IMG/VR virus record: IMGVR_UViG_3300042807_000369
Strand: one strand, 5' to 3'
From: a virus
DNA: 61,975 nt
The notes under the pieces were generated by a model. The model saw nothing but the letters and a program-made list of their open reading frames with translations, ran no database searches and was not told where the DNA came from. Of this stretch, positions 1 through 36,305 are shown piece by piece. The translations under genes and the position numbers were made by a program. How positions within the stretch are numbered: the stretch's first letter is position 1; each line of letters starts with the position of its first letter.

Positions 1-3908
<3,908 letters not shown>

Positions 3909-16589: not shown

Positions 16590-17237
16590 ATGAGCGGCGC
16601 ACAACAAATTTCGTTTATGAATCAGCGCTCGTTTGGGCCACCACCTGCTCCCCCTGTAGTTGGGGAGGCCTATGGGGGAGGGTTTTTTGCGGGGCAGATT
16701 TCTACTACTGCGAATAGTGTTGCTACACACAATCTCGTAGTCGGTCCACTATCTACTGCGCAAAATTTAAGTTTGCGATGGAAAACTACAAACACCTCAA
16801 CAACAGGGACAGACTCGGTAATTGACGGCCCTGCAAACAGCGCTAATATGAATGATGCAAGTCATCCAGCAGCACAGTTCTGCGAGGGGTTGACAATTGG
16901 AGGTTTTAGCGATTGGTATCTGCCAGCTAAAAACGAGTTAGAGGTGTGTTACTACAATTTAAAACCAAGCACAGCTTCAAACAATACAGCGTTCGGTATA
17001 AACCCTAATGCCGTACCTGCAAGGGCATCAAACTACACCACAGGTAACCCTGCCCAAACTTCAGCAGTAATTTTCAGAACAGGCAACGCAGAGGCATTTG
17101 CAGGCGGTGCGTATTGGAATAGCACTCAATATTCTGCTACGTACGCGTGGCAAGAGAACTTCCTTGATGGTTACCAAGGTTACGCCAGTAAATCAGGGAA
17201 TTCCCGTGTTCGAGCAATACGCCGCGTATCGGTTTAA
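16590..17237 (+). CDS. DUF1566 (Lcl C-terminal domain)-like protein, putative receptor-binding accessory
   Basis: GGFSDWYLPAKNELEVCYYN ... AYWNSTQYSATYAWQENFLDGYQGYASKSGNSRVRAIRRV matches the DUF1566 pattern (DWRLP...EL...YWSS........F..G.......VR.VR). Confidence 0.6.
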   Translation: MSGAQQISFMNQRSFGPPPAPPVVGEAYGGGFFAGQISTTANSVATHNLVVGPLSTAQNLSLRWKTTNTSTTGTDSVIDGPANSANMNDASHPAAQFCEGLTIGGFSDWYLPAKNELEVCYYNLKPSTASNNTAFGINPNAVPARASNYTTGNPAQTSAVIFRTGNAEAFAGGAYWNSTQYSATYAWQENFLDGYQGYASKSGNSRVRAIRRVSV

Positions 17238-17252
17238 TTAAGGAGCATCACA

Positions 17253-17687
17253 ATGCACATCGTTGTAACAGAAGTTGACCACAAAACCCGCGTTCCTTGC
17301 ACTGTCGAGCCACAGCGCACAGGCCCCTCTATGCCTGCCGTTAAAGGCTTAAAGATCATTTGGACAGATAAGTCCACATGGCCTGTCAGCACAGACGACA
17401 CAGGCACATACCTGCGTGCCCCCAAATACTATGGCACCTGCGATGACGATGCCGACACGAACATCCCTGGCGTGTTGGAAGTCCTGACCGAGGCTGAGTG
17501 GAACGAGCGCCGTGTGACTGAACACGAAGCCACCAAGCCCTATCCATCGTGGATCGGCTACTTGGACACCATGAGCTGGAGCGCCCCCGTAGCTCGTCCA
17601 GTAGATGCCATCATGAACGGCGGCAACGTGCGTTATCAGTGGGATGAAGCCACAGTCAACTGGGTGCCAGCGGAAACTCAAGCATGA
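17253..17687 (+). CDS. Hypothetical protein (144 aa) in fibre locus
   Basis: A track ORF with aaggagc RBS. Its C-terminal YQWDEATVNWV motif is common in small phage proteins. Function unknown. Confidence 0.5.
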   Translation: MHIVVTEVDHKTRVPCTVEPQRTGPSMPAVKGLKIIWTDKSTWPVSTDDTGTYLRAPKYYGTCDDDADTNIPGVLEVLTEAEWNERRVTEHEATKPYPSWIGYLDTMSWSAPVARPVDAIMNGGNVRYQWDEATVNWVPAETQA

Positions 17688-18505
17688 AGGAGTTTTTCTT
17701 CATCTCGGGGCTGCCACGGTCGGGGTCAACTCTGCTGTCGGCTATCCTGCGTCAGAACCCTGAGTTCTACGCAGACATCTCCTCGCCCGTGCAAAGCTTG
17801 GTGGCATCGACCATCAATGTTATCACGGGCAGTGAGAGCAACCACCTGATTGATGAAGACCGCCGCAAGAGCATCTTGCGTGCCATGTTCAACGCCTACT
17901 ACGACGCTGTTGAGCCGCCTACCGTGTTCGACACTAGCCGGGGATGGACATCCAAAACATCGCTTTTGAAGGCTCTGTACCCACAGACCAAGATCATCTG
18001 CTGCGTGCGGGACCTGCCATGGATTCTGGACAGTTTTGAACGCATTGCAACTAAAAACAGCTTGTGGAACGCCAGCCTGACCGATAATGAAGCCAGCCAA
18101 ACGGTAACCACTCGATGCGACGCTCTAATGGACGTTAAAAAGGAAGGCCAGGTCGTCAAGCCCTACTATTTCTTGGAAGAAGGCCTGCTCTTAAGCCCCG
18201 ACATGATCATGCTGGTGGAGTATGAGATGCTGTGCAAGCAGCCCGAGAGCGTGATGCGGGAGCTGTATAGCTTTATCGGCAAGCCATATTTTGACCACGA
18301 CTACATGAACGTCGAGTACGATAACGAGGTGTACGACAAGGCGCTGAACATGAAGAGCTTGCACACAGTTCGCAAGCAAGTTTCGTGGCAAGAGCGCCCG
18401 TCAATCCTGCCCAAGTCGGTGTGGGAGAAGTACTCAGGCAAGGAGTTTTGGCGCAAACCAGCCCCAGAGTTCTCCGTCAAGTCACTCTACAAAGTCAAAG
18501 GTTGA
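17684..18505 (+). CDS. Sulfotransferase (PAPS-dependent family)
   Basis: It has an N-terminal 5'-PSB loop ISGLPRSGSTLL and a 3'-PB-like VRDLPWILDSF (R..x..S). At ~270 aa it is the size of Stf0/NodH-type sulfotransferases. It overlaps the upstream gene by 4 nt. Confidence 0.75.
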   Translation: MKEFFFISGLPRSGSTLLSAILRQNPEFYADISSPVQSLVASTINVITGSESNHLIDEDRRKSILRAMFNAYYDAVEPPTVFDTSRGWTSKTSLLKALYPQTKIICCVRDLPWILDSFERIATKNSLWNASLTDNEASQTVTTRCDALMDVKKEGQVVKPYYFLEEGLLLSPDMIMLVEYEMLCKQPESVMRELYSFIGKPYFDHDYMNVEYDNEVYDKALNMKSLHTVRKQVSWQERPSILPKSVWEKYSGKEFWRKPAPEFSVKSLYKVKG

Positions 18506-18507
18506 GC

Positions 18508-19293
18508 ATGAAGCGCATTTTAGTCATGGGTTTGCCCGGTTCCGGCAAAACAACTTTGGCTCAGCATATCCTTGAGCACCTGCAAAACGAGCGCAAAACA
18601 GTCATGTGGCTGAACGCCGATGACGTGCGCAAGAAGTACAACGACTGGGATTTTTCTCACGAGGGCCGTATCCGCCAGAGCCTGCGCATGCGGGAGTTAG
18701 CTGACAGCTACACCACCGATTACGTGATCTGCGACTTCGTGGCCCCTCTGGTGGAGATGCGTAACAACTTCAAGGCCGACTGGACTGTCTGGGTGGACAC
18801 CATCGAGCAGGGCCGGTTTGAAGACACCAACAAGGCGTTCATCGCGCCGGAGCAGTACGACTTCCGCATCACTGAGCAAAAGGCTGAGAAGTGGGGTGAG
18901 TTTGTAGCTGCGCACATCTTGGACAACCGCCGCCGTTCCGTGTTTGACTGGCAGAAAGAAACCGTGCAGATGCTTGGCAGATGGCAGCCGTGGCACAAGG
19001 GCCACCGTGCGTTGTTTGAGCGTGCGATTGCCAAGACGGGTCAAGTGGTTATCCAGATCAGAGACTGCCAAGGCTGGAACGGCTCCAACCCCTTTGCCGC
19101 AAATCAAGTTAAAGAGTTCATCAAGCGCGACCTTGATCCGTTGTATCAAGGCCAGTACGAAATACAACTTGTGCCCAACGTAGTAAACATCACCTATGGC
19201 AGAGACGTGGGCTACAAGATTGAACAAGAATCTTTTGACGAGGCCACGCATGCCATCTCGGCTACGAAGATTCGTAATGAAATGGGAGTTTAA
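18508..19293 (+). CDS. Fusion protein: APS (adenylylsulfate) kinase-like domain + HxGH nucleotidyltransferase domain
   Basis: The ATG at 18508 lies 3 nt after the sulfotransferase stop. The N-domain GLPGSGKTTLA...LNADDVRKKYNDWDFSHEGRIRQSLRMRELA...WVDT matches CysC (GLSGSGKST.A...LDGDNVR..L...LGFS..DR.ENIRR..EVA...FVDT). The C-domain GRWQPWHKGH ... ISATKIRNEM matches the cytidylyl/adenylyltransferase motifs GxFxPxHxGH and ISSTxIR. Confidence 0.7.
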   Translation: MKRILVMGLPGSGKTTLAQHILEHLQNERKTVMWLNADDVRKKYNDWDFSHEGRIRQSLRMRELADSYTTDYVICDFVAPLVEMRNNFKADWTVWVDTIEQGRFEDTNKAFIAPEQYDFRITEQKAEKWGEFVAAHILDNRRRSVFDWQKETVQMLGRWQPWHKGHRALFERAIAKTGQVVIQIRDCQGWNGSNPFAANQVKEFIKRDLDPLYQGQYEIQLVPNVVNITYGRDVGYKIEQESFDEATHAISATKIRNEMGV

Positions 19294-19295
19294 TC

Positions 19296-20870
19296 ATGCC
19301 AAGCACCTTTTCAAGTCTCAAGTTCGAGATCATCGGCAGCGGCGAGCAGTCGAACACTTGGGGCAATACAACTAACACCAACATTGGCACCGCTATTGAG
19401 CAAGCCATCACAGGTCTAAGTAATCCAGTTTTTGCTTCTGACGCTGATTTAACAATCAGCCTGACCGACTTGCTGGGCCCCGCTTTGCAGGTCCCGCGAG
19501 CCCTGGTCCTAAACGTCACGTCCAGCGTTTCCTTGACCGCGACTCGAAATTTAGTAGTCCCGACAATTGAGAAGCAATACCTGGTTCAAAACAACACGTC
19601 AGGTGGCCGAAGCATTGTTGTAAAAACGGCGGCGGGCACGGGCATTACCGTGCCCAATGGCGCAAAGATGCACCTGTATGTTGACGGGGTAAACGTCATA
19701 GATGCAGTGTCGCATTTCAGCGCGCTGACTCTTGGCGCTGCTCTGCCTGTTACAAGCGGGGGCACGGGCACCACTACTCCTGCTTTGGTACAAGGGACCA
19801 ACGTTACAATCACCGGCGCTTGGCCAAATCAGACAATTAACGCAGTCGGGTCTGGGGACGTTGTAGGCCCGGCATCCGCCACGGACAGTGCATTGGCCGC
19901 GTTTGATGGCACTACAGGCAAATTGCTTAAAGAAGCGGCCACGGTAAGTGTGGCGCAGGGCGGCACCGGTCTGACTACTGCCACTGCTTACAGCGTAGTA
20001 TTTTCGGGCACTACGAGCACCGGAGCTTTCCAGGCCTCTGCCGGTCCAGGAACCGCGACGCACGTCTTGACCAGCAATGGTCCTGGCGCATTGCCCACGT
20101 TTCAAGCACCACCCACATTAGGTAACCTTACAGGGGCGGTGACCTCAGTAGGCGTTGCTACCTCTTTGGGCTCGTTTACCTCTGCTGATTTGGCTGGGGC
20201 TTTGACTGATGAAACAGGAAGTGGTGCGGCAGTTTTTGCAAACACCCCAACACTTATCACACCTAATTTAGGGACACCAACTACGCTGGTTGGCACCAAC
20301 ATTACGGGCACAGCGGCAGGCCTGACAGCAGGCACTGTGACAACCAACGCCAACCTGACGGGCATGGTCACTTCGGTCGGCAACGCGGCTTCTTTGGGGT
20401 CATTTACTTCCGCCAACTTGGCGGCAGCCTTGACCGACGAAACGGGTACTGGCGCGGCAGTCTTCGCCAACAGCCCCACCCTGATAACACCTGCTCTTGG
20501 CACACCTGCCAGCGGCGCGCTGACCAACTGCACGGCAGACGGCACTAACCAGGTTGGTTATCGCAACGTACCCCCCTCGGGCACTAAAACGTCTAGTTAC
20601 ACCTTGGTGGCGGCAGACGTTGGCAAATTTGTTGAGCTGGGAACTGGTGGCAGTGTTACTGTTCCTGCGGGCGTGTTTGCGGCGGGGGACGTTGTAAGCA
20701 TCTTCAACAACACCAGCGGAACCATTGCTTGCACTTGCTCTGCCATCACCGATGTATATAAAGCTGGAACTGATACTGACATTAGCAGCTTCAGCATCAC
20801 CACACGTGGCGTGGCCAACATCCTTTTCATCACCGCCACCCGCGCAGTGGTAACGGGGAACTTGGCATGA
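19296..20870 (+). CDS. Tail fibre 2 (full length)
   Basis: A 524-aa ORF whose N-terminus is paralogous to 15290..15997. It has an internal duplicated ~50-aa motif NLTG.VTSVG.A.SLGSFTSA.LA.ALTDETG.GAAVFAN.PTLITP.LGTP typical of phage fibres, and a C-terminus paralogous to 16007..16579. Confidence 0.85.
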   Translation: MPSTFSSLKFEIIGSGEQSNTWGNTTNTNIGTAIEQAITGLSNPVFASDADLTISLTDLLGPALQVPRALVLNVTSSVSLTATRNLVVPTIEKQYLVQNNTSGGRSIVVKTAAGTGITVPNGAKMHLYVDGVNVIDAVSHFSALTLGAALPVTSGGTGTTTPALVQGTNVTITGAWPNQTINAVGSGDVVGPASATDSALAAFDGTTGKLLKEAATVSVAQGGTGLTTATAYSVVFSGTTSTGAFQASAGPGTATHVLTSNGPGALPTFQAPPTLGNLTGAVTSVGVATSLGSFTSADLAGALTDETGSGAAVFANTPTLITPNLGTPTTLVGTNITGTAAGLTAGTVTTNANLTGMVTSVGNAASLGSFTSANLAAALTDETGTGAAVFANSPTLITPALGTPASGALTNCTADGTNQVGYRNVPPSGTKTSSYTLVAADVGKFVELGTGGSVTVPAGVFAAGDVVSIFNNTSGTIACTCSAITDVYKAGTDTDISSFSITTRGVANILFITATRAVVTGNLA

Positions 20871-22231
20871 GCGGGATTGTGCTTAACATTTTAGGGGCCA
20901 GTTTTGGCGCGGCGTTTGCTCCTGTGGGTTTTTTGGCTTCAATTAGTAATCCTAACGGCAATGCTGTTGATAACTCTAATCTGGCTATAAGGAGCGATCA
21001 GCTAAATGCGTCTGTCCAAACTTCAGCAGCCGGTGTTACACAACTTACCGCACTGAGTCTCCCGCTCACATTAGACAGTATTACCTGGCAAGTCGCGCTT
21101 ACTGACGGGGCAGACGTGCCTGTGGCCAGGCAGATTGCAATTGACTCTGCAGGTAACCCCGTTATAGCAGGCTATAAATTTGTTACTTTTAATAACTTCA
21201 ATGCAGGCTACGTTGTTAAATTTAACAGCAGTGGAGTTGTTCAATGGCAGCGTCGAGTACAAGCCGACTGTGGTTTTTTTGGGCTTACTATAGACGCTAG
21301 CGACAACATTTACTGTGCAGGCGCTGCTCGTTTTTTCTCCCCTAGCCGCTTTGACATTTATGTTTCTAAACTTGATTCCTCTGGCACGCTTCAATTTCGA
21401 AGAAACATTGGAGACACCGGCTCACCTTTTGAATCAGCAAGTGCTGTTTCAATAAACAATGCAGATTGGTTTAATGTAGCTGCAAGCTCTGACGCACCTG
21501 GTAATTTGGACTCCGCTTTTCTTATTCTTGACCGCTCAACAGGGGACACAATAGGTGCAGTAACCCAAAGAGACTCAAGTGGTTCGGGCAGGCAAGAGGG
21601 CATAGACGTTGTCCGTGGAGAGGCAGATACGATAAGTTATTTTTTGCTTCGTACATTTTCAACGTTATCTTCTGGTAGCAAGTCTGATCAAGTGCTTTTA
21701 CGGCACACAAATGCGGGGGGGTTTGTATGGCAACGACAACTCTCTACTGATCAAACTATTGCGCCTGTACGCTTGGCCATGGACCCCAGTAACACGCATG
21801 TCTACACCTGTGCTAACTTGACAAGTTCTGATGGATTACGTCAGGAGCTTCTTCTTGTTAAATATGGTGCTGACGCTACGGGGTCTCTGATTTGGCAGCG
21901 AAAACTAGCATGTCCTACAGCGAGCCTTACGGTACGATCCATTGCAACAGATTCCTTAGACAATGTGTACATAACTATGGATCAGTTTTCGTCCGGGTTA
22001 TCGGACAGGGTGTTAGTTCTTAAAATGCCAGGGAGTGGCGCGGGTGCCGGAAACTCCGCTGTTCTTGACGGTAGGACGTACACCTATTCAGAGTCCAGCG
22101 TGTCGGCTTTCTCAGGGGGACTTGTTATTACGGCTTACAGCCCTGTCAATAGCCAATTTTCTGAAACATTAACAACTCCAACTGCGGCAAGTGCCTCCAA
22201 TACGTTAGCTATTGCAGGGGAATCAGTGTGA
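20867..22231 (+). CDS. Beta-propeller-repeat (SBBP-like) protein, putative tail spike/receptor-binding protein
   Basis: A 454-aa ORF with recurring D..(D/G)N(I/V)Y..G......D.(Y/L)V.K(L/Y)...G...WQR blades (DASDNIYCAG...DIYVSKLDSSGTLQFRR; DSLDNVYITM...; LLLVKYGADATGSLIWQRK). It is AT-richer than its flanks and coupled to fibre 2 by a 4-nt overlap. Confidence 0.5.
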   Translation: MSGIVLNILGASFGAAFAPVGFLASISNPNGNAVDNSNLAIRSDQLNASVQTSAAGVTQLTALSLPLTLDSITWQVALTDGADVPVARQIAIDSAGNPVIAGYKFVTFNNFNAGYVVKFNSSGVVQWQRRVQADCGFFGLTIDASDNIYCAGAARFFSPSRFDIYVSKLDSSGTLQFRRNIGDTGSPFESASAVSINNADWFNVAASSDAPGNLDSAFLILDRSTGDTIGAVTQRDSSGSGRQEGIDVVRGEADTISYFLLRTFSTLSSGSKSDQVLLRHTNAGGFVWQRQLSTDQTIAPVRLAMDPSNTHVYTCANLTSSDGLRQELLLVKYGADATGSLIWQRKLACPTASLTVRSIATDSLDNVYITMDQFSSGLSDRVLVLKMPGSGAGAGNSAVLDGRTYTYSESSVSAFSGGLVITAYSPVNSQFSETLTTPTAASASNTLAIAGESV

Positions 22232-29512: not shown

Positions 29513-31096
29513 ATGGCAACCGAATCTACTACACAAATAATGGCGGAATCGCCGAGGATCGAAGATGCTCGGATGCGGTTGCTAGATGAGGCAGAAGCAG
29601 TTGCCTTTGGCCTGCCAAACAAAGCAGGAGTTACTCGCCCTACTCTAGGTTCACAACTTCAACAATATGGCGCATATAACGTAGCGGGATTTACTCCTGC
29701 CCAGCAGGCCGCTTTGGACGCGGCGGCAAGACAGGGCATTGGGTCATACAACCCTTACATGGACAACGCCAATACTGCGATAGGGGCTGCCTACGACACG
29801 ACGGGGGAGGCCGCTGACGTATTGCGCGGTGCGGACACCCGTGAGCAGTTCTTTGACGCACAGGCTGCCATGGGGCAGGCAGGGCAGGCAGGCGGTAACA
29901 TCACCGCAGGTATTGGCCAAATCAATGAAGGCCTGAGTTACTTGGACAGCGCCGCACGGCGCACGGCTCAGTCCGACACCACCGATCAGTTCGGTGCTGC
30001 TCGTCAGGACTTGCAATCAGGCATTGGCGCGTTGTCCACGGCTCAAAACCTATCTGCAGGCTCCAGTCAAGCCAATTTAAGGCCTGCAACATCTTTTTTA
30101 AGTGGTGCAGTTGGGGGGTACGACCCCAGCCTTGCTGCTAAAAGTTTTCAGGACTTTAACAATCCATATCAACAGCAGGTAATCCAAGAAGCCATACGCC
30201 AAATTGATCGTCAAGGAGAGATCGCAGGGCAAGGCCTAGCAAATCAGGCAATCCGTTCGGGTGCTTTTGGAGGTGAGCGCGAGGGTATTCAACGCGCTGA
30301 GCTGTCTCGTGCGTTAGCTGAACAAAAAAATGCAGCTATCGTAGGTGCTTTGTCACAAGGCTACAACCAGTCTCAAGCTCAAGCCATGAACGCGTTTGAG
30401 CAGCAGCAAGCTCGTCAAATGCAGGCAGGACAAGGTTTGGGCCAATTGGGCGTACAACAAGCTCAACTGGGCCAAGGTGCAGCAGGGCAGTTTTTGCAGG
30501 CAGGACAACAGTATGGCAACTTTGCCTCGCAGGGCGGTGCACTGGCGGGCCAAGAGTCAGCGATCAACCAAAACATCTCGAACTTGTTGTTGCAAAATGC
30601 GCAAGCACGAAATCAGGCTGCGCAAACAGCCGCTGGCATTTACGGGCAGCAAGGGCAGCAGTTCCAGCAACTAGGCCAGGGCATTGGCTCTTTGGCAGGG
30701 CAGCAGTTTGGCATTGGCCAGCAGCAGGCACAGGGCCTTGGTGCGATGGCCGGTCAACTCGGCCAGCTCGGCGTGCAGCAGGCTGCTTTGGGTCAGACCG
30801 CTCAAGGCCTGCAGCAAAGCGACATCAACTTCTTGTACAACACTGGGCAAGCTCGCCAAGCGCTTAACCAACAGGCGCTTGACGCAACACGGGCCACAAA
30901 CCTGCAGCAAGTTTATGCGCCTTACCAGCAGGCAGGGTTCTTGTCAGACATCCAGCGCGGAGCCCCTAGCTCGCAGATGGCGACTACCATTTCAAGCACC
31001 CCTCAAGCCAGCCCCTTCCAACAAGCCGTCGGCGTTGGCTTGGGAGCCATCTCCACCTTAGCAGGTGCACAAAAAGCTGGTCTTAAACTTTTCTAA
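29513..31096 (+). CDS. Internal virion protein 2 (Gln/Ala/Gly-rich)
   Basis: A 527-aa ORF that starts at the previous stop. It is highly Q-rich and helical (QQAQLGQGAAGQFLQAGQQ...). Confidence 0.5.
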   Translation: MATESTTQIMAESPRIEDARMRLLDEAEAVAFGLPNKAGVTRPTLGSQLQQYGAYNVAGFTPAQQAALDAAARQGIGSYNPYMDNANTAIGAAYDTTGEAADVLRGADTREQFFDAQAAMGQAGQAGGNITAGIGQINEGLSYLDSAARRTAQSDTTDQFGAARQDLQSGIGALSTAQNLSAGSSQANLRPATSFLSGAVGGYDPSLAAKSFQDFNNPYQQQVIQEAIRQIDRQGEIAGQGLANQAIRSGAFGGEREGIQRAELSRALAEQKNAAIVGALSQGYNQSQAQAMNAFEQQQARQMQAGQGLGQLGVQQAQLGQGAAGQFLQAGQQYGNFASQGGALAGQESAINQNISNLLLQNAQARNQAAQTAAGIYGQQGQQFQQLGQGIGSLAGQQFGIGQQQAQGLGAMAGQLGQLGVQQAALGQTAQGLQQSDINFLYNTGQARQALNQQALDATRATNLQQVYAPYQQAGFLSDIQRGAPSSQMATTISSTPQASPFQQAVGVGLGAISTLAGAQKAGLKLF

Positions 31097-31105
31097 GAGG
31101 TCGAC

Positions 31106-33121
31106 ATGAATAAGAAAATGATGGCAATGGACGACGACATTGAAAACGTCGGCATCATGCAGGGCTTTATGGACTCCATGGCCGACGAGGACGAAGGCGA
31201 TGATGAGAGCGATCCAGAGGAGAAGCTGGAGCGCCGCCCTGACACCCCTGAAATCTTGATGAACAACCTGCGCGGCGACATGCGCTCTATTGAAGCGCGT
31301 CGTGATGAACTGGCCAACATGGTGGGCTACCAAGCAGCTACAGAGACGCCGGAATCAGTGTTGGCCATGCTGCAGCCTGTACTGGCGCAGCAGAGCGGCA
31401 TTGGCGCGTTGCCTCAATCAGGGCCCCTGGCTCAAGGGCCACAGGCCCCGATGATGGGCGGCGCTCCTGGTATGCCCCCTCCTGGCATGCCTCCAGTGCC
31501 TGCCGACATGGGCGTTCCTCCGCCTGGTATGCCTCCGATGCCTCCAGGCGCGGGCATGCCTCCTCCGCCTCAACAAGGCGGCATCGCCGAGCTGTTGGCC
31601 GGCATGGGCGGCGCTCAAGGTGGTATGCCTGCGTCTGACCAGCCTCCAGTGGCCATGGCGCGTGGCGGGCTTGTCCAAAATTTTCAAGCGGGGTCTGATG
31701 AAGAAGGCGTGACCCCTGCTGCTGAACAAGGCCCTTCTGATGCGGGAATGATGATGTTTCCCCCGGAGATGGTGGCTGCTGCTCAGCGCCAAGCCATGGG
31801 CACGCTTAACCAGCAGCCCACTCAGGCCCCAAGCATTGAAGAAGCGACCATGTCCCGCCTGCCACTGCTCAACAAGTTGATGGGCCCGGACAGAAACGCG
31901 ATGCAAGCACAAATGCTTTTTGACCTCGGACAACGGGCCTTTGGCTTTGCGGCTAACACTGACGAGGCAGGTCGCCCATTGAAGGGCAGCTTCATGTCTC
32001 GCTTGGCCGGGGCTACCCGAACACTGCCCGCCGCAATGGGCAGACAGCTTGAACAGATTACTCAGATTGATCGGCAGATCAAAATGTTGGCTCTGCAACA
32101 GGGTGAGAAGGACGTCGACAAGATTGAAGCGAAAAACGCTGCACTGGAAAATCGTAAAGGCAGTTTGCTTAACGAAGTGCTGCGCGCGCAGGCCAAGATT
32201 GAAGCTAAGAAACTAGGGGGCACCAAGCCCACCAGCATGTTTGGCAACAGCTTGGACGGGCGCATTCTGGACGCATTCGCCACCATCGGCCCAAAGATTG
32301 AAGCTGGAACCGCCACAGAGCCGGAAAAAATAATCTACAACTTGTCCGCGCAGCATTACACGCGGCTCACCCCTGTGCCAATTATTGATCCAGTGGACAA
32401 ACAAATTAAGGGATACACGATGATGAGCAGGCCAATGCCTGTGCTAGGGGGCACCCCTCTTCCAGGACAAGGGGGAGCGGGTCCTATGGTGGGTCAAGGT
32501 GGTCCAATGCCCATGTCGCCAAGTATTCCTCCACTACCTGGTGCAACCGCCCCAATGCCTGGCGCGGCAACGACATCGGCGGAGCCGGAAGCGGGCCCTG
32601 AAATCTCTCTTTGGAAAGACCGATACAAGATTTCTGGGCCATTAAACGCTGCGAAGGATGTAATCACACAACTTCCAGGGCTAGGTGACCCCTTCTCCGA
32701 CGTTAATTTGGCACGCCAGAGAGCTGGCCAACAAGCTGAACGCATTGTCGACTCCTTGCTTAAAAGCACTGCAGGAAGTGTCAGGGAGCAAGAACGGTTG
32801 GCCCCTGTAATTGGCATCAAACCTAGTGCAGTGATTGGCGGGGATGCCTATGGCACAAAGCTCATTGCACTGGGTTCCACTCTTCAGAGCATGATCCAAG
32901 AATATGAGGCACAAGGCCGCGCGGATTCGGGGCTGACGCCTGAGGCTAAGGGTCAGGCGCGGCAGCGGGCTTCTGCACTCAGACAGCAGTACGATAATCT
33001 GGGGCTTCCTCCTATCGTAATGAGCCAGGAGGAGCTTGATAAGTATCCGCCAGGCACTGAGGTTTTGTGGCAAGGCAGAACCCCCATTACTCGGCAGAAC
33101 AGAGTAACGGGCGGCAGGTAA
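31106..33121 (+). CDS. Internal virion protein 3 (PPGMPP repeats)
   Basis: A 671-aa ORF with an acidic N-terminus, a Pro/Gly/Met-rich block (GMPPPGMPPVPADMGVPPPGMPPMPPGAGMPPPP) and a MARGGLV motif. Confidence 0.5.
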   Translation: MNKKMMAMDDDIENVGIMQGFMDSMADEDEGDDESDPEEKLERRPDTPEILMNNLRGDMRSIEARRDELANMVGYQAATETPESVLAMLQPVLAQQSGIGALPQSGPLAQGPQAPMMGGAPGMPPPGMPPVPADMGVPPPGMPPMPPGAGMPPPPQQGGIAELLAGMGGAQGGMPASDQPPVAMARGGLVQNFQAGSDEEGVTPAAEQGPSDAGMMMFPPEMVAAAQRQAMGTLNQQPTQAPSIEEATMSRLPLLNKLMGPDRNAMQAQMLFDLGQRAFGFAANTDEAGRPLKGSFMSRLAGATRTLPAAMGRQLEQITQIDRQIKMLALQQGEKDVDKIEAKNAALENRKGSLLNEVLRAQAKIEAKKLGGTKPTSMFGNSLDGRILDAFATIGPKIEAGTATEPEKIIYNLSAQHYTRLTPVPIIDPVDKQIKGYTMMSRPMPVLGGTPLPGQGGAGPMVGQGGPMPMSPSIPPLPGATAPMPGAATTSAEPEAGPEISLWKDRYKISGPLNAAKDVITQLPGLGDPFSDVNLARQRAGQQAERIVDSLLKSTAGSVREQERLAPVIGIKPSAVIGGDAYGTKLIALGSTLQSMIQEYEAQGRADSGLTPEAKGQARQRASALRQQYDNLGLPPIVMSQEELDKYPPGTEVLWQGRTPITRQNRVTGGR

Positions 33122-33134
33122 CTAAGGGGCGTAC

Positions 33135-36100
33135 ATGTCTAAAAATGATCAGATTCCTGAAGGCTGGGAGCCAGTTGCACGTCCCGGCATGTCCGTAGAT
33201 AGCCCCACATCCGAGCCACTTCCCGAGGGCTGGGAGCCAGTTGCAAGTCCTGCGTCAGAGCTCGCAGGCCAAGCAGCCTTGGGCGCGGGCCAGGGTCTCA
33301 TAAGCGCCACTCCAGCAGTAGGCGGTGCGGTGACCGGACTAAAGCTGGGCCTCCCCTTTGGCCCATTTACAGCGGCGGCTGGCATGATCGGTGGGGGCAT
33401 TGCTGGATACTATGCAGGCCAGAGTGCGGAGGACGCTTACAAGTCGTTTTTCCCGGAGCCCAGCAGCCCCGATGCAAAGGTTTTCCGGGAAGCGGGCAAG
33501 ACCTTCGGCGGCAGCCTGCCGTTCGCAGCAGCTGTTCCCTATCTGCCCACGATGACTGGCAACCGCGTCAGTCGCTTTGTCACAAGCATCCGCGACGCCG
33601 CCGTGCGCAACCCCAAGACGTTCAAGACCAGCGAGGTCATGGGCGCACTTGGTGCGGGCATTGGCGCAGGCGTAGCCGAGAGCGAAGACCCGGGAGCGCC
33701 TGGTACACGCCTTGCTGGAGAAGTGATTGGCGGCATGCTCTCCCCAGGGCGGTTCCTGATCAACCAAACGGGGACCGTGATTGACGGCCTGTCGAAGATC
33801 AAAGGCAACTTCAGCGAGGCCTCGCGTGAGGCCCGCGCTGCAGATCGCCTAAGAACAATTTTGGAAGAGTTTGGGGAAGACATTCCCACGTTGATCCGTC
33901 GTCTGGAAGCAGACATGCCGATTGACCAGCTGTCCTCGCCTGGCGCAAAGCGTCTTACCCCTACGTCTGCACAGAAGACAGACAGCCTGGGCCTGACTGC
34001 TCTGGAATCGGCCCTGGGCCAAACTAACAAGAAGTTTCTTGGGGAAGCGCGAGAGCAGGGCCGCCAAGCGGCGCAGGCCTACCAGTTATTGGCGGACCGG
34101 CTGAAAAACATTGGCACTCCTGACTCCTTGGCCCTGGCCGCGCAGTTGCAAGAGGTCCGGTTTAACTCAATGATTGACGGGCGCTTGGCTGATGCTGACA
34201 GGATCGCAGCGTTAAAAATTTCCAAGATTACCAAAGACACTCCTCAGGCCCGCCGGACTATTGGCGAGACAATCAAGGAGCAGACCGAACTTGCGTTACG
34301 CGATGCCCGAGATTACGAGTCGAGCCTGTGGAAAGACGCCCTGTCGCAGATGACGCGCAAGCCTGTGGCCATGCCACCTGGCGTGCCGTTAAACGTGGTT
34401 TCTATCCCAACGCTTGCACCCGTAAACACGGTCAAGGATTTCTTGGACTACACAACAGGCATCGGCGATGCGGTGCTCGACAAGAACACCCCGGCTGTCG
34501 TCAAAAGCATCATGTCCAAGTTTGGCGTGACGCCCGACGCGATCAAGAAGTACAAAGCAGGTCGTCGTAGTGAGGAGTTTGCTCTCACCGGTCAAATCCC
34601 GGCACGCTTTCTGCCCCAAACCAAAGATTTAGACTTGTCTGAGCTGGTGAACTACCGCTCCAACCTTCTGACCATGGCGCGTGAGGCAGCAAGCAAGGGT
34701 GAAGCCAGCAACGCCAACTTCTACAGCACTATTGCGCAAAGCCTGATGCGGGACTTGGACACTGTCAAAAGTCCGGCGTTCGACGAAGCACGCACCTTCT
34801 CCAAGGCACTGAACGACGTCTTCACCCGAACGTTTGCAAAAACAGCGTCTGAAAGCGCTGATGTCACCCGCGCCGGCGCAGAGCGCTTGCCCGCTGAAAT
34901 CCTGGTGAAGCGCGCATTTGGTGCGAATGCGGATGTGACGGCCATGCGCATGAACGAGCTTGAAGACGCGGTCAAGTTCATGTCGACTCAATATGACAGC
35001 GCCGTAGCCCGCTTTGGCGCGAACAGCCCACAAGCTGCCGCGCTCAAACCTGCTGCAGACGTTTCGCGTGCAGGGGCGGCCTCTATGGCCGACGCGCAGC
35101 AGCGCGTTCTTCGCATGGGCGCGGCGGCTGCGATCGACAGCACCTTTGATCCCGCCACCGGGCGTGAAGTCACGCGCCTGAACACCACAAAACTGAAAAA
35201 GTTTGTGGCAGAAAACAAACCTATGCTGGACAAGTTGGGCATCACGCCTGATTTGAATGATGCAGTCAAGGCAGAGAACGCTTTCCGCATGGTGCAGAGC
35301 GAAAACAGCGCCCTGATGAAGCGCGCTTCGGACCAGTATGCGTTTGGGCAGGTTCTCAAGGTAGGCAACGAGCGCCCCAGCATTGCAATTGGAAGCATGC
35401 TTAACGGCAACAACCCGGTCCGGGACATGAAGAATTTGGTCAAGATGGCCACGGATTCTGACAACGCAGAAGCAGCTGTTCGAGGGCTGAAGCACTCGCT
35501 GTATGACTATGCCTACACCAAGGCTACCGGCCCTAGCGGCAAGTTCAGCCCCCAGGCTTTTGAAGACGCTTTCTTCAAACCTTTGGGACCGAATCAGCCT
35601 TCCGTCGTAAACGTCATGCGCGCCAACGGTCTTATGACGCTTACAGAGATGAAAAATCTCAAGCGCCTTACAGACCCGATGGCCCGCATCGAATCCGCTA
35701 TGACTAGCGGCCGTATGTTGGACGAAATAGTTCCGGGAAGCGACGCGATTGAAGAGTTGGTGCAACGCGTTATCGGAGCTCGAATTGGCGCTGCAGCGGC
35801 CCCTGGTGGACCAGGCTCGCTGATCGCGGCTTCCGCAGGCTCCAAAGCCGTGCGATCCATCTTTGACAAAATGCCTAGCATGAGTACCGTGACCATCATG
35901 GAAAGGGCCGCACAGGACCCTGATTTCATGGCGCTGCTGCTCAAGAAGGGCCGCACAGAGACTGAGAAGCTGCAGATTGCTCGGCAGCTGCATGGCTACA
36001 TGCTGAACGCAGGACTGAACTACGCCACCTACGAAGAGCCTGAACCCACGCCCGCTCCCACCAACCAATCGCCGCTGACAACTCAAGGCCAGGCCGCGCG

Positions 36101-36305
36101 GCTGCTACGCCAACTCCCCCAGGCCCCGTCTACCCGGGGGGTCCCAGGGCTCAACCTTGCCCCCAAACCAGCAGGCCAGCCGGCCGCGTCAAACAACGCC
36201 CCTGCAAACCCTTCCGCGCGGTCTCAGTTCCAAGCGCTGTTCCCAAATGACAGCATTAGTGGTCTGGCTGCGCAGCAGGCACAGCAGCCGCCTGTGCCGC
36301 AGTAA
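33135..36305 (+). CDS. Internal virion protein 4 (largest, 1056 aa)
   Basis: The size and position (last of the structural operon) resemble T7 gp16-class proteins. It has an N-terminal duplicated PEGWEPVA motif and then a Gly-rich hydrophobic segment. I recognised no transglycosylase motif. Confidence 0.5.
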   Translation: MSKNDQIPEGWEPVARPGMSVDSPTSEPLPEGWEPVASPASELAGQAALGAGQGLISATPAVGGAVTGLKLGLPFGPFTAAAGMIGGGIAGYYAGQSAEDAYKSFFPEPSSPDAKVFREAGKTFGGSLPFAAAVPYLPTMTGNRVSRFVTSIRDAAVRNPKTFKTSEVMGALGAGIGAGVAESEDPGAPGTRLAGEVIGGMLSPGRFLINQTGTVIDGLSKIKGNFSEASREARAADRLRTILEEFGEDIPTLIRRLEADMPIDQLSSPGAKRLTPTSAQKTDSLGLTALESALGQTNKKFLGEAREQGRQAAQAYQLLADRLKNIGTPDSLALAAQLQEVRFNSMIDGRLADADRIAALKISKITKDTPQARRTIGETIKEQTELALRDARDYESSLWKDALSQMTRKPVAMPPGVPLNVVSIPTLAPVNTVKDFLDYTTGIGDAVLDKNTPAVVKSIMSKFGVTPDAIKKYKAGRRSEEFALTGQIPARFLPQTKDLDLSELVNYRSNLLTMAREAASKGEASNANFYSTIAQSLMRDLDTVKSPAFDEARTFSKALNDVFTRTFAKTASESADVTRAGAERLPAEILVKRAFGANADVTAMRMNELEDAVKFMSTQYDSAVARFGANSPQAAALKPAADVSRAGAASMADAQQRVLRMGAAAAIDSTFDPATGREVTRLNTTKLKKFVAENKPMLDKLGITPDLNDAVKAENAFRMVQSENSALMKRASDQYAFGQVLKVGNERPSIAIGSMLNGNNPVRDMKNLVKMATDSDNAEAAVRGLKHSLYDYAYTKATGPSGKFSPQAFEDAFFKPLGPNQPSVVNVMRANGLMTLTEMKNLKRLTDPMARIESAMTSGRMLDEIVPGSDAIEELVQRVIGARIGAAAAPGGPGSLIAASAGSKAVRSIFDKMPSMSTVTIMERAAQDPDFMALLLKKGRTETEKLQIARQLHGYMLNAGLNYATYEEPEPTPAPTNQSPLTTQGQAARLLRQLPQAPSTRGVPGLNLAPKPAGQPAASNNAPANPSARSQFQALFPNDSISGLAAQQAQQPPVPQ

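Follow-up and report, generated by a model that had tools for sequence, protein, structure and literature searches.

Why does a phage gene that starts directly behind a sulfotransferase gene code for a kinase of the adenosine 5'-phosphosulfate (APS) type joined to a very small nucleotidyltransferase? The question arises from IMG/VR virus record IMGVR_UViG_3300042807_000369, a stretch of 61,975 nucleotides referred to here as the window, in which an open reading frame (ORF) on the plus strand (18508..19293) encodes a protein of 261 residues followed by a stop codon. A first-pass annotation, made from the letters of the DNA, had described this protein as an unusual fusion of an APS-kinase-like P-loop domain with a minimal HxGH nucleotidyltransferase, and had proposed that it might be a miniature synthase of 3'-phosphoadenosine 5'-phosphosulfate (PAPS). 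The ORF was confirmed, and all the motifs quoted in that annotation were located in the 261-residue protein. The two-domain assignment was confirmed by Pfam, by profile searches and by AlphaFold2 (AF2) models searched with Foldseek, and the motifs are invariant or nearly so in diverse homologues. We consider it likely that the module has some role in APS/PAPS metabolism. The narrower proposal, that the fusion makes PAPS in two steps for use by the neighbouring sulfotransferase, has, judged from sequence and gene context, about an even chance (roughly 0.5).

The kinase half comprises residues 1-148 (18508..18951, plus strand, as for all features of the protein) and is a lid-less variant of the APS-kinase family, as assessed by Pfam, Foldseek and alignment with CysC. 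Residues 4-90 matched Pfam APS_kinase (E=2e-11; 44.6 bits, where the gathering score is 21.1), with only positions 5-94 of the 152 in the profile aligned. A full-length AF2 model built on 150 sequences had a mean predicted local distance difference test score (pLDDT) of 91.7, and the best 48 of the 50 PDB matches listed by Foldseek were all APS kinases, with E-values of 3e-6 to 1e-4 and target-normalised template-modelling (TM) scores of 0.57-0.75. The exceptions among these 48 were three full-length chains of PAPS synthases or of ATP sulfurylase (ATPS) fused to APS kinase (APSK), with TM scores of ~0.22. A fold search of BFVD contributed nothing new beyond phiRSL1 ORF238 and generic kinases. 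Because the Pfam gathering score was passed and the best 48 fold matches are APS kinases, the N-terminal domain is specifically APS-kinase-like, and is neither a generic NTP kinase nor a ribosylnicotinamide kinase of the NadR type; these were the identities that the first-pass annotation had named as fatal to its proposal.

The motifs of the kinase half are consistent with this assignment. In the P-loop GLPGSGKTT (residues 8-16; 18529..18555), G8, G13 and K14 are invariant in 43 diverse fusions. LNADDVR (residues 35-41; 18610..18630) stands where APS kinases have the LDGDNxR motif; at least 90% of the same fusions keep D38 and all keep R41, and the first Asp of LDGD is replaced by Asn in the window kinase. 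The segment DWDFSHEGRIRQ (residues 46-57; 18643..18678) aligns with NLGFSPEDRTENIRR of the canonical CysC domain in the homologue P0203. Within this segment, F49 takes the place of the first of the two Phe residues that sandwich the adenine of APS, S50 of the GFS-type Phe/Ser pair is kept, and R54 aligns with a conserved Arg. F104 aligns with the second Phe of the sandwich, a position at which an aromatic residue is kept. Together, D38, R41, F49, R54 and F104 correspond to the LDGD motif, to Phe492 and Phe576, which sandwich the adenine of APS, and to Arg497 of Mycobacterium tuberculosis CysC (PMC4373884). F104 is part of GRFEDTN (residues 102-108; 18811..18831), which, as judged by alignment and conservation, is a signature of the family and the site of a 16-residue lid deletion. 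The window kinase and CysC (PF01583, TIGR00455) have the same fold, and besides the P-loop the kinase retains the Arg and second Asp of LDGDNxR, the Phe/Ser of GFS, the Arg of the DR pair and the second stacking aromatic; in contrast to CysC, the window kinase lacks the KGLYKKAR segment and measures ~140 residues instead of ~180.

The transferase half, residues 149-261 (18952..19290), is a minimal HxGH nucleotidyltransferase domain. On the single sequence, the Pfam match to CTP_transf_like at residues 157-184 was borderline, at 20.9 bits where the gathering score is 21. A profile built from 39 diverse C-terminal domains, however, when run against the PDB, recovered the archaeal nicotinamide mononucleotide adenylyltransferase (NMNAT) MJ0541 (1f9a) with E=5.9e-12, followed by NadM (2qjt), NadR and phosphopantetheine adenylyltransferase (PPAT). 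An AF2 model of the nucleotidyltransferase domain alone (pLDDT 90.8) matched archaeal NMNAT in the PDB with a TMq of 0.70-0.75, and PPAT over a core of ~75 residues; only three clear strands were assigned in the models by DSSP. The scores against the NMNAT equivalogs of NCBIfam were far below their cut-offs (TIGR01527, 28.2 against 181.2; NF002243, 30.6 against 127).

The two signatures that the superfamily carries on its Rossmann-like core, (T/H)xGH and ISxTxxR, lie at residues 163-166 and 250-256 and are invariant. GRWQPWHKGH (residues 157-166; 18976..19005) carries the HxGH nucleotide-binding signature; its G, R, Q, P, H, G and H are invariant in the 39 domains, and in a set of 142 sequences that includes proteins in which the transferase is joined to CysC, G, R, Q, H, G and H are invariant and P and W are conserved in at least 90%. 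ISATKIR (residues 250-256; 19255..19275) represents ISxTxxR, the second of the two signatures; its S, T and R are invariant, and the segment aligned with it in MJ0541 is SGTEIRRRM. Over the 142 sequences the invariant elements are GRxQ.xHxGH, R185, NP, PN, YGRxVGY and SAT..R, and the YGRDVGY loop of the window protein (residues 230-236; 19195..19215), which is specific to the family, has its Y, G, R, V, G and Y invariant in this set. That all the catalytic signatures are invariant argues against a dead regulatory domain.

In sequence and fold, the closest relatives of the C-terminal domain are thus the NMNATs of the archaeal/NadM type (MJ0541, 1f9a; M. thermoautotrophicum, 1ej2; Francisella NadM, 2qjt), with which it has GRxQPxHxGH, an NPF motif and ISxTxxR in common. 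Unlike these enzymes, it lacks ~25 residues between strand 3 and the (Y)G..GY segment as well as the C-terminal helical subdomain, and it has the YGRDVGY loop and, following strand 2, an invariant Arg (R185), neither of which was seen in the NMNAT sequences aligned to it. The profile alignment covers residues 3-74 and 108-133 of MJ0541, with 8 residues where MJ0541 has 33, and the Foldseek alignment runs over 137 columns for a query of 114 residues. In NMNAT, the absent segment includes the nicotinamide-binding helix. The ATPS Sat (PF01747) belongs to the same HxxH/HxGH nucleotidyltransferase superfamily; its catalytic domain is much larger than ~110 residues and is accompanied by a PUA-like N-terminal domain. 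In Sat-type ATPS the phosphosulfate is bound by two loops, QxRN (the RNP loop), which precedes the His pair, and GRD (GRDHA); the latter comprises 295-GRD-297, and the NH of Ala299 binds the sulfate of APS (PMC3779200). The logic of the motifs is comparable in the two proteins, each having a loop with R and Q ahead of the His pair and a G-R-D loop that follows a later strand, and the resemblance of GRxQPxHxGH and YGRDVGY to the QxRN and GRD loops is suggestive. The mini-transferase differs from Sat in size and has neither its oligomerisation domains nor its GxxKxxD mobile loop. Of the two structural comparisons that the first-pass annotation had envisaged, the one with NMNAT gave matches, and the one with Sat gave none, there being no ATPS among the Foldseek top 50.

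Directly upstream of the fusion is a gene for a 273-residue sulfotransferase (17684..18505, plus strand), which matches Pfam Sulfotransfer_3 (E=7e-19) and Sulfotransfer_1 (E=8.7e-11) and PHROG 27463 (E=6.9e-48). In an alignment of 15 homologues it displays an invariant GLPRSGST loop and an R109...S117 pair, which we take to be PAPS-binding motifs of the 5'-PSB/3'-PB type, and the protein is presumed to be a PAPS consumer. The ATG of the fusion starts 2 nt past the TGA stop of the sulfotransferase gene, and the two genes are probably translationally coupled. To see how far this linkage extends, we collected 80 viral loci with 6-kb flanks and grouped their genes using iterated local profiles and all-against-all clustering. 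The window's sulfotransferase family was found within 6 kb of the fusion in 23 of the 80 loci and is, by all-against-all clustering, the most recurrent neighbour family; in these loci the identity of the fusion to that of the window goes down to 65%, the position of the sulfotransferase gene varies and tandem-domain forms occur. Phage contig L105 has a fusion 91% identical to the window's, with a tandem-domain sulfotransferase of 589 residues and several RCC1-repeat proteins upstream. A second family, weakly sulfotransferase-like, is present in 10 other viral loci, with no overlap with the first 23. Two candidates, ST_B (208 residues) and a family of 209 residues, were not counted as bona fide sulfotransferases, as their support was weak (Pfam E=3.8e-4; hhalign E=0.0024 at 12% probability; a match confined to the P-loop region, at 57% probability).

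The fusion turned out to be anything but unusual, and here the first-pass annotation had overstated its case. A search of metagenome proteins gave at least 8000 homologues at E<=1e-5, the best 120 of which are all at least 81% identical to the window protein; a search of the representatives of 50%-identity clusters found 2206 of them at E<=1e-3, and relatives are encoded by no fewer than 520 IMG/VR stretches. The protein matches PHROG 10255 ('kinase') over its full length (E=4.5e-52), and full-length homologues with 38-41% identity are encoded by cultured phages of Xylella (Sano, Salvo, Bacata), Stenotrophomonas (Suzuki, DLP6, Bhz60) and Xanthomonas, and by one Clavibacter phage. Members of the family go by the names 'kinase', 'adenylylsulfate kinase', 'cytidyltransferase', 'AAA family ATPase' and 'CysN/CysC', and in IMG also 'nicotinamide riboside kinase' and 'phosphopantetheine adenylyltransferase'. 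No earlier description of the fusion was found in the literature searched, which covered papers on SAR11, cysC and PAPS, on phage sulfotransferases and APS kinases, or on ATPS and NMNAT. The family is thus abundant yet uncharacterised, and known by generic names only.

The search for the same architecture, which the first-pass annotation had suggested, showed the fusion to be widespread and to coexist with reversed, CysC-fused and split forms. Among the representatives are many full-length fusions and many kinase-only proteins of ~140 residues, a stand-alone transferase of 130 residues (P0259) and a protein in which the lid-less kinase and the transferase are joined in reversed order (P0195). 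In P0203 (311 residues) the mini-transferase is fused to a canonical CysC, which matches Pfam APS_kinase with 212 bits over the full profile. This transferase-CysC architecture represents a large marine family that is chromosomal in Pelagibacteraceae, and one of its members, P0334, passes the NCBIfam APS-kinase equivalog with 246.8 bits against a cut-off of 138.7. The CysC-attached transferase domains are 44-48% identical to that of the window and have all the catalytic residues in common with it; because of this, the transferase is likely to catalyse the same reaction in all the architectures. Two Ralstonia phages carry the kinase in other settings: in phiRSL1 ORF238 (L004 3995-4690) it is joined to an unrelated C-terminal domain of ~85 residues, and in RsoM2USA it stands alone (143 residues).

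Cellular genomes add a second line of evidence. A scan of GTDB genomes yielded 80 loci with the transferase (L014-L093), mostly from SAR11 and SAR86. In 58 of them a transferase gene of 124-135 codons overlaps an upstream gene for a lid-less kinase of 136 residues, as in L024 (7573-8354) and L016 (7586-8363). Bacteroidota loci have stand-alone transferase genes with no adjoining kinase. In four alphaproteobacterial loci the gene immediately upstream of the pair codes for a CysQ that passes the equivalog cut-off (288 bits against 228.8), and in three more loci CysQ is encoded within ~6 kb of the pair. Upstream of the SAR86 pair there is a gene resembling the 'putative sulfate exporter' YeiH, with a score below the cut-off, and in a Sphingomicrobium metagenome-assembled genome a TPR-Sulfotransfer_3 protein adjoins the fusion. 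SAR11 genomes are reported to lack cysDN and sat and to possess cysC, cysQ (Table 3 of the cited work) and aprBA, and cysC, as labelled there, and aprA have the same pattern of presence and absence in seven SAR11 genomes (PMC5069961). With AprBA, cysC and cysQ but no sat or cysDN, neither the fate of the APS made by AprBA nor the source of PAPS is explained. A regex scan for Sat motifs over all the loci that we retrieved found no Sat gene. The sulfur-responsive genes SAR11_1163 and SAR11_1164 (PMC5069961) were considered as possible members of the family and ruled out, as their products are described as small, SAR11-specific, probably membrane proteins.

Several recurrent neighbours of the cellular genes were recorded. 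A BhmT-type homocysteine S-methyltransferase is encoded within 6 kb of the pair in 12 SAR11 loci, and a HalD-like gene of the Fe/2-oxoglutarate halogenase family lies 3' of the kinase/transferase pair in 19 loci. The transferase-CysC proteins of SAR11 measure ~310 residues (L009 8001-8933; L010-L013; P0203, P0271-P0389) and bear the IMG label 'bifunctional enzyme CysN/CysC', although their N-terminal domain is not CysN. Their gene is always followed by one for a protein of 645-663 residues with no Pfam match, and then by a giant RTX (HemolysinCabind) gene, which is complete (~1660 codons) in three loci and truncated by the end of the contig in the other two; a transporter gene of the MFS/PTR2 type lies upstream on the opposite strand. 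The marine fusion P0461 (L097 1232-5944) is part of a surface-glycan island with NeuB/CMP-sugar genes and genes for phosphonate biosynthesis (a PEP mutase-cytidylyltransferase fusion, a TPP decarboxylase and an Fe-dependent alcohol dehydrogenase); a 403-residue protein of this island has a weak match to Sulfotransfer_3 (E=0.0048).

How, then, would the fusion work? The domain families, the conservation of their motifs, the architectures and the gene linkages described above are direct observations, from which we infer both substrates and both activities. With the sulfotransferase, the fusion would make up a sulfation module carried by the phage. The C-terminal mini-adenylyltransferase would form APS from ATP and sulfate, using an HxGH core of the NMNAT/PPAT type that may have lost ~25 residues after strand 3 and gained the Arg after strand 2 and the YGRDVGY loop. 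The N-terminal lid-less domain of the APS-kinase family would then phosphorylate the 3'-OH of APS to give PAPS, and the sulfotransferase would spend the PAPS to sulfate an acceptor. A glycan on the surface of the host or the virion is the probable acceptor, given that the gene pair is surrounded by tail-fibre genes and that glycan genes are present on related contigs. The two-part enzyme could fill the apparent ATPS gap of SAR11 and SAR86, either by making APS or by converting the APS made by AprBA into ATP and sulfate. This PAPS-synthase interpretation has gained support from the identity of the kinase, the fusion of the same transferase to a canonical CysC, the occurrence of both domain orders, the linkage to sulfotransferase and CysQ genes, and the reported gap in sat and cysDN in SAR11. 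The missing NMNAT stretch after strand 3, the invariant catalytic signatures and the likeness of YGRDVGY to the GRD loop also count in its favour. The bifunctional PAPS synthases (PAPSS1/2, APSK-ATPS; the Aquifex and fungal enzymes, ATPS-APSK) likewise join a member of the adenylyltransferase superfamily to one of the APS-kinase family, in both orders. The window fusion adjoins a PAPS consumer, and its layout fits the sequence sulfate to APS to PAPS; it differs from those synthases in that its transferase measures ~110 residues, is NMNAT/PPAT-like and has no detectable match to ATPS, and in that its kinase has no lid. A wider proposal is more tentative and falls somewhat short of even odds: that the NMNAT-derived domain of ~110 residues represents a third class of ATPS, that with a lid-less or a canonical APS kinase it accounts for sulfate activation in SAR11 and SAR86, and that phages captured it to supply their sulfotransferases.

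A number of observations weigh against the two-step mechanism. On the kinase side, the score against the APS-kinase equivalog TIGR00455 of NCBIfam is 33.9, far from the cut-off of 138.7. The 16-residue deletion removes the lid DPKGLYKKARAGIIKD, which in canonical CysC lies between the aligned R and F, and with it the counterpart of Lys562. In M. tuberculosis CysC, closure of the lid is reported to be essential, and Lys562 touches the gamma-phosphate and the 2'-OH of APS (PMC4373884). For this reason we call the domain a lid-less variant of the APS-kinase family and not an orthologue of CysC. On the transferase side, no ATPS was found in the profile search of the PDB with the C-terminal domains up to E=10, nor among the Foldseek top 50 of the model of the transferase alone. 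Sulfate activation by this domain, if any, would thus be a new recruitment and not a shrunken Sat. Moreover, the activation of sulfate is thermodynamically unfavourable, the NMNAT and PPAT relatives of the transferase use large acceptors (NMN and phosphopantetheine), and we know of no precedent for so small a sulfate-activating catalyst.

The gene context and some architectures speak in the same direction. The SAR11 pair resides in a core-genome context with no adjacent sulfotransferase, and no sulfotransferase was detected in the Sano-type and DLP6-type phages by tblastn and an iterated local hidden Markov model. A SAR11 fusion (52-55% identical) lies in an O-antigen-type cluster, followed by a GmhA-like SIS gene, and HldC-like transferases abut the fusion in ~8 viral loci. 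In P0264 the kinase is fused to a sugar-1-phosphate nucleotidyltransferase (PF00483), and in P0146, P0227 and P0231 the lid-less kinase is joined to an SGNH/GDSL-like domain. The miniature PAPS synthase of the first-pass annotation has fared unevenly: comparative genomics, through the CysC fusion, the two domain orders, the gene linkages and the SAR11 gap, lends it support, whereas the missing match to ATPS and the deleted lid do not.

These objections raise the question of whether only the kinase half serves sulfation, by converting host APS into PAPS, while the transferase adenylylates some other acceptor, makes NAD, or senses or binds an adenine nucleotide and so regulates the kinase. The APS-kinase assignment is indeed the best-supported part of the analysis, no similarity to ATPS was found, and in the APSK of Entamoeba an accessory ATPS-like domain acts as a non-catalytic regulator that has lost substrate binding (PMC13213808). 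In the family studied here, however, HxGH, ISxTxxR and the two family-specific Arg residues are invariant in 142 sequences of three architectures, in contrast to the Entamoeba domain; the stand-alone transferase genes of Bacteroidota suggest an enzyme in its own right; and SAR11 would be left with no source or sink of APS besides AprBA. We regard such a division of labour as unlikely. Less probable still is an enzyme analogous to HldE, in which the kinase would phosphorylate a sugar (a heptose phosphate, for example) and the transferase would make a nucleotide-activated sugar for glycans. Both NadR and HldE join a kinase to a small HxGH adenylyltransferase of the same pathway, and the layout of the fusion mirrors that of HldE; the O-antigen-type cluster of SAR11, the HldC-like genes next to viral fusions, the PF00483 fusion of one relative and the location of phiRSL1 ORF238 among glycosyltransferase and NDP-sugar genes would all suit this activity. 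Yet the kinase of HldE is of the PfkB/ribokinase type, whereas that of the window is P-loop NMP-kinase-like and of the APS-kinase type, and a sugar kinase would leave unexplained the fusion of the same transferase to canonical CysC, the conserved pair of adenine-stacking Phe residues and the counterparts of the phosphosulfate-binding Arg residues. The GmhA-like match in SAR11 is below its equivalog cut-off. Directly 3' of the fusion in L105 (6783-8956; also in L103 and L121, whose fusions are likewise ~91% identical to that of the window) there is an ADP-heptose-like set of genes, absent from the window, that comprises an HldC-like transferase, a cupin, a PfkB kinase fragment and an epimerase; L105 thus has its own complement of these proteins, and the fusion is not needed for heptose activation there. 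Glycan clusters are, besides, where the PAPS genes for sulfated glycans would also be expected, and regions of the L105 type look like glycan-modification islands into which PAPS synthesis would fit.

The affinity of the transferase for NMNAT brings up NAD salvage, with the protein as a rearranged NadR that unites a ribosylnicotinamide kinase and an NMN adenylyltransferase. The transferase is closest in sequence to the NMNATs of NadM and NadR, IMG labels some members 'nicotinamide riboside kinase', and genes for NAD salvage, with which phages boost or restore NAD+, are common in phages. The kinase, in contrast, matches APS kinases, and no NadR is present in the list of 50 PDB matches that Foldseek gave for the model of the whole protein. 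NadR has the order HTH-NMNAT-AAA_28-type ribosylnicotinamide kinase, opposite to that of the fusion, and no HTH was found in the window protein; the ~25 residues after strand 3 are absent, and the fusion to canonical CysC and the linkage to sulfotransferase and CysQ would remain unexplained. We consider this activity improbable and rejected it as the main explanation, given the APS-kinase likeness by Pfam and fold, the reversed domain order and the absent NMNAT segment. It is more improbable again that the two domains form a pair resembling PPAT and dephospho-CoA kinase, whose product would be not PAPS but another adenylyl cofactor with a 3'-phosphate, for instance a CoA-like molecule or a 3'-phospho-AMP-X donor. 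PPAT is among the best fold matches of the transferase and lends its name to some members in IMG, and APS kinase and dephospho-CoA kinase both phosphorylate the 3'-OH of adenosine; but the PPAT matches span only the ~75 residues of the common core, the kinase is APS-kinase-like, and the links to canonical CysC, sulfotransferase and CysQ point to sulfate.

The window as a whole is a phage genome that encodes a portal, virion proteins, a primase, a helicase and a DNA polymerase, with Phage DSL-LC04 and the Pelagibacter phages HTVC027P and HTVC023P among its relatives. The sulfotransferase and fusion genes are placed among fibre-like genes. Flanking the pair on one side is an Lcl_C-domain protein (PF07603, E=1.2e-12; 16590-17237); on the other, a gene with a tail-fibre PHROG match (19296-20870) lies between the fusion and the gene for an SBBP beta-propeller repeat protein (20867-22231). 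The Lcl_C and SBBP-repeat proteins are probably components of fibres or adhesins. The cultured phages with a match to the structural protein of the window, DSL-LC04 among them, are all absent from the phage matches of the fusion and from those of the sulfotransferase, and the pair thus looks like an accessory island. Elsewhere in the window, an ORF of 1295 codons at its start (21-3908) and three large ORFs 3' of the structural genes (527, 671 and 1056 residues; 29513-36305) had no PHROG match at E<=1e-5.

Other viral surroundings of the fusion were also seen. In L153 (4473-5162, 7064-7636, 9404-10255) and L107 (1009-1689, 3790-4293, 5558-6409) the fusion lies among genes resembling those for 7-deazaguanine synthesis, namely GTP cyclohydrolase I, a PTPS/QueD-like protein and a QueE-like radical SAM protein. 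A radical-SAM family seeded on L138 (8340-9506) is represented in 17 loci, and free-standing members of the SGNH/GDSL-like family occur near the fusion, likewise in 17 loci, including L150 (5313-5990). In Xylella phage Sano (L001 2205-4698) the fusion is part of an early-gene block with an annotated cysteine dioxygenase and a MazG-like pyrophosphatase, and in relatives of Sano a COG3236/GTP-cyclohydrolase-II-like gene is annotated beside it.

What would a PAPS-forming fusion mean for these organisms? Even if this assignment were wrong, the family would still rank among the most abundant uncharacterised two-domain enzymes of surface-ocean genomes, at present mislabelled as cytidyltransferase, AAA ATPase, CysN/CysC or nicotinamide riboside kinase. 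If it is right, a domain of ~110 residues would be a third structural solution for ATPS, beside Sat and CysDN, and a one-chain PAPS generator of 261 residues would be useful for enzymatic sulfation. In SAR11, among the most abundant marine bacteria, the module would be a concrete candidate for the 'missing sat' next to AprBA, CysC and CysQ, a gap recognised for a long time. Many aquatic phages would carry a self-contained sulfation kit, a PAPS synthase together with a sulfotransferase, among their tail-fibre and glycan genes, and sulfation of the surface of the host or of the virion would be a common strategy of infection.

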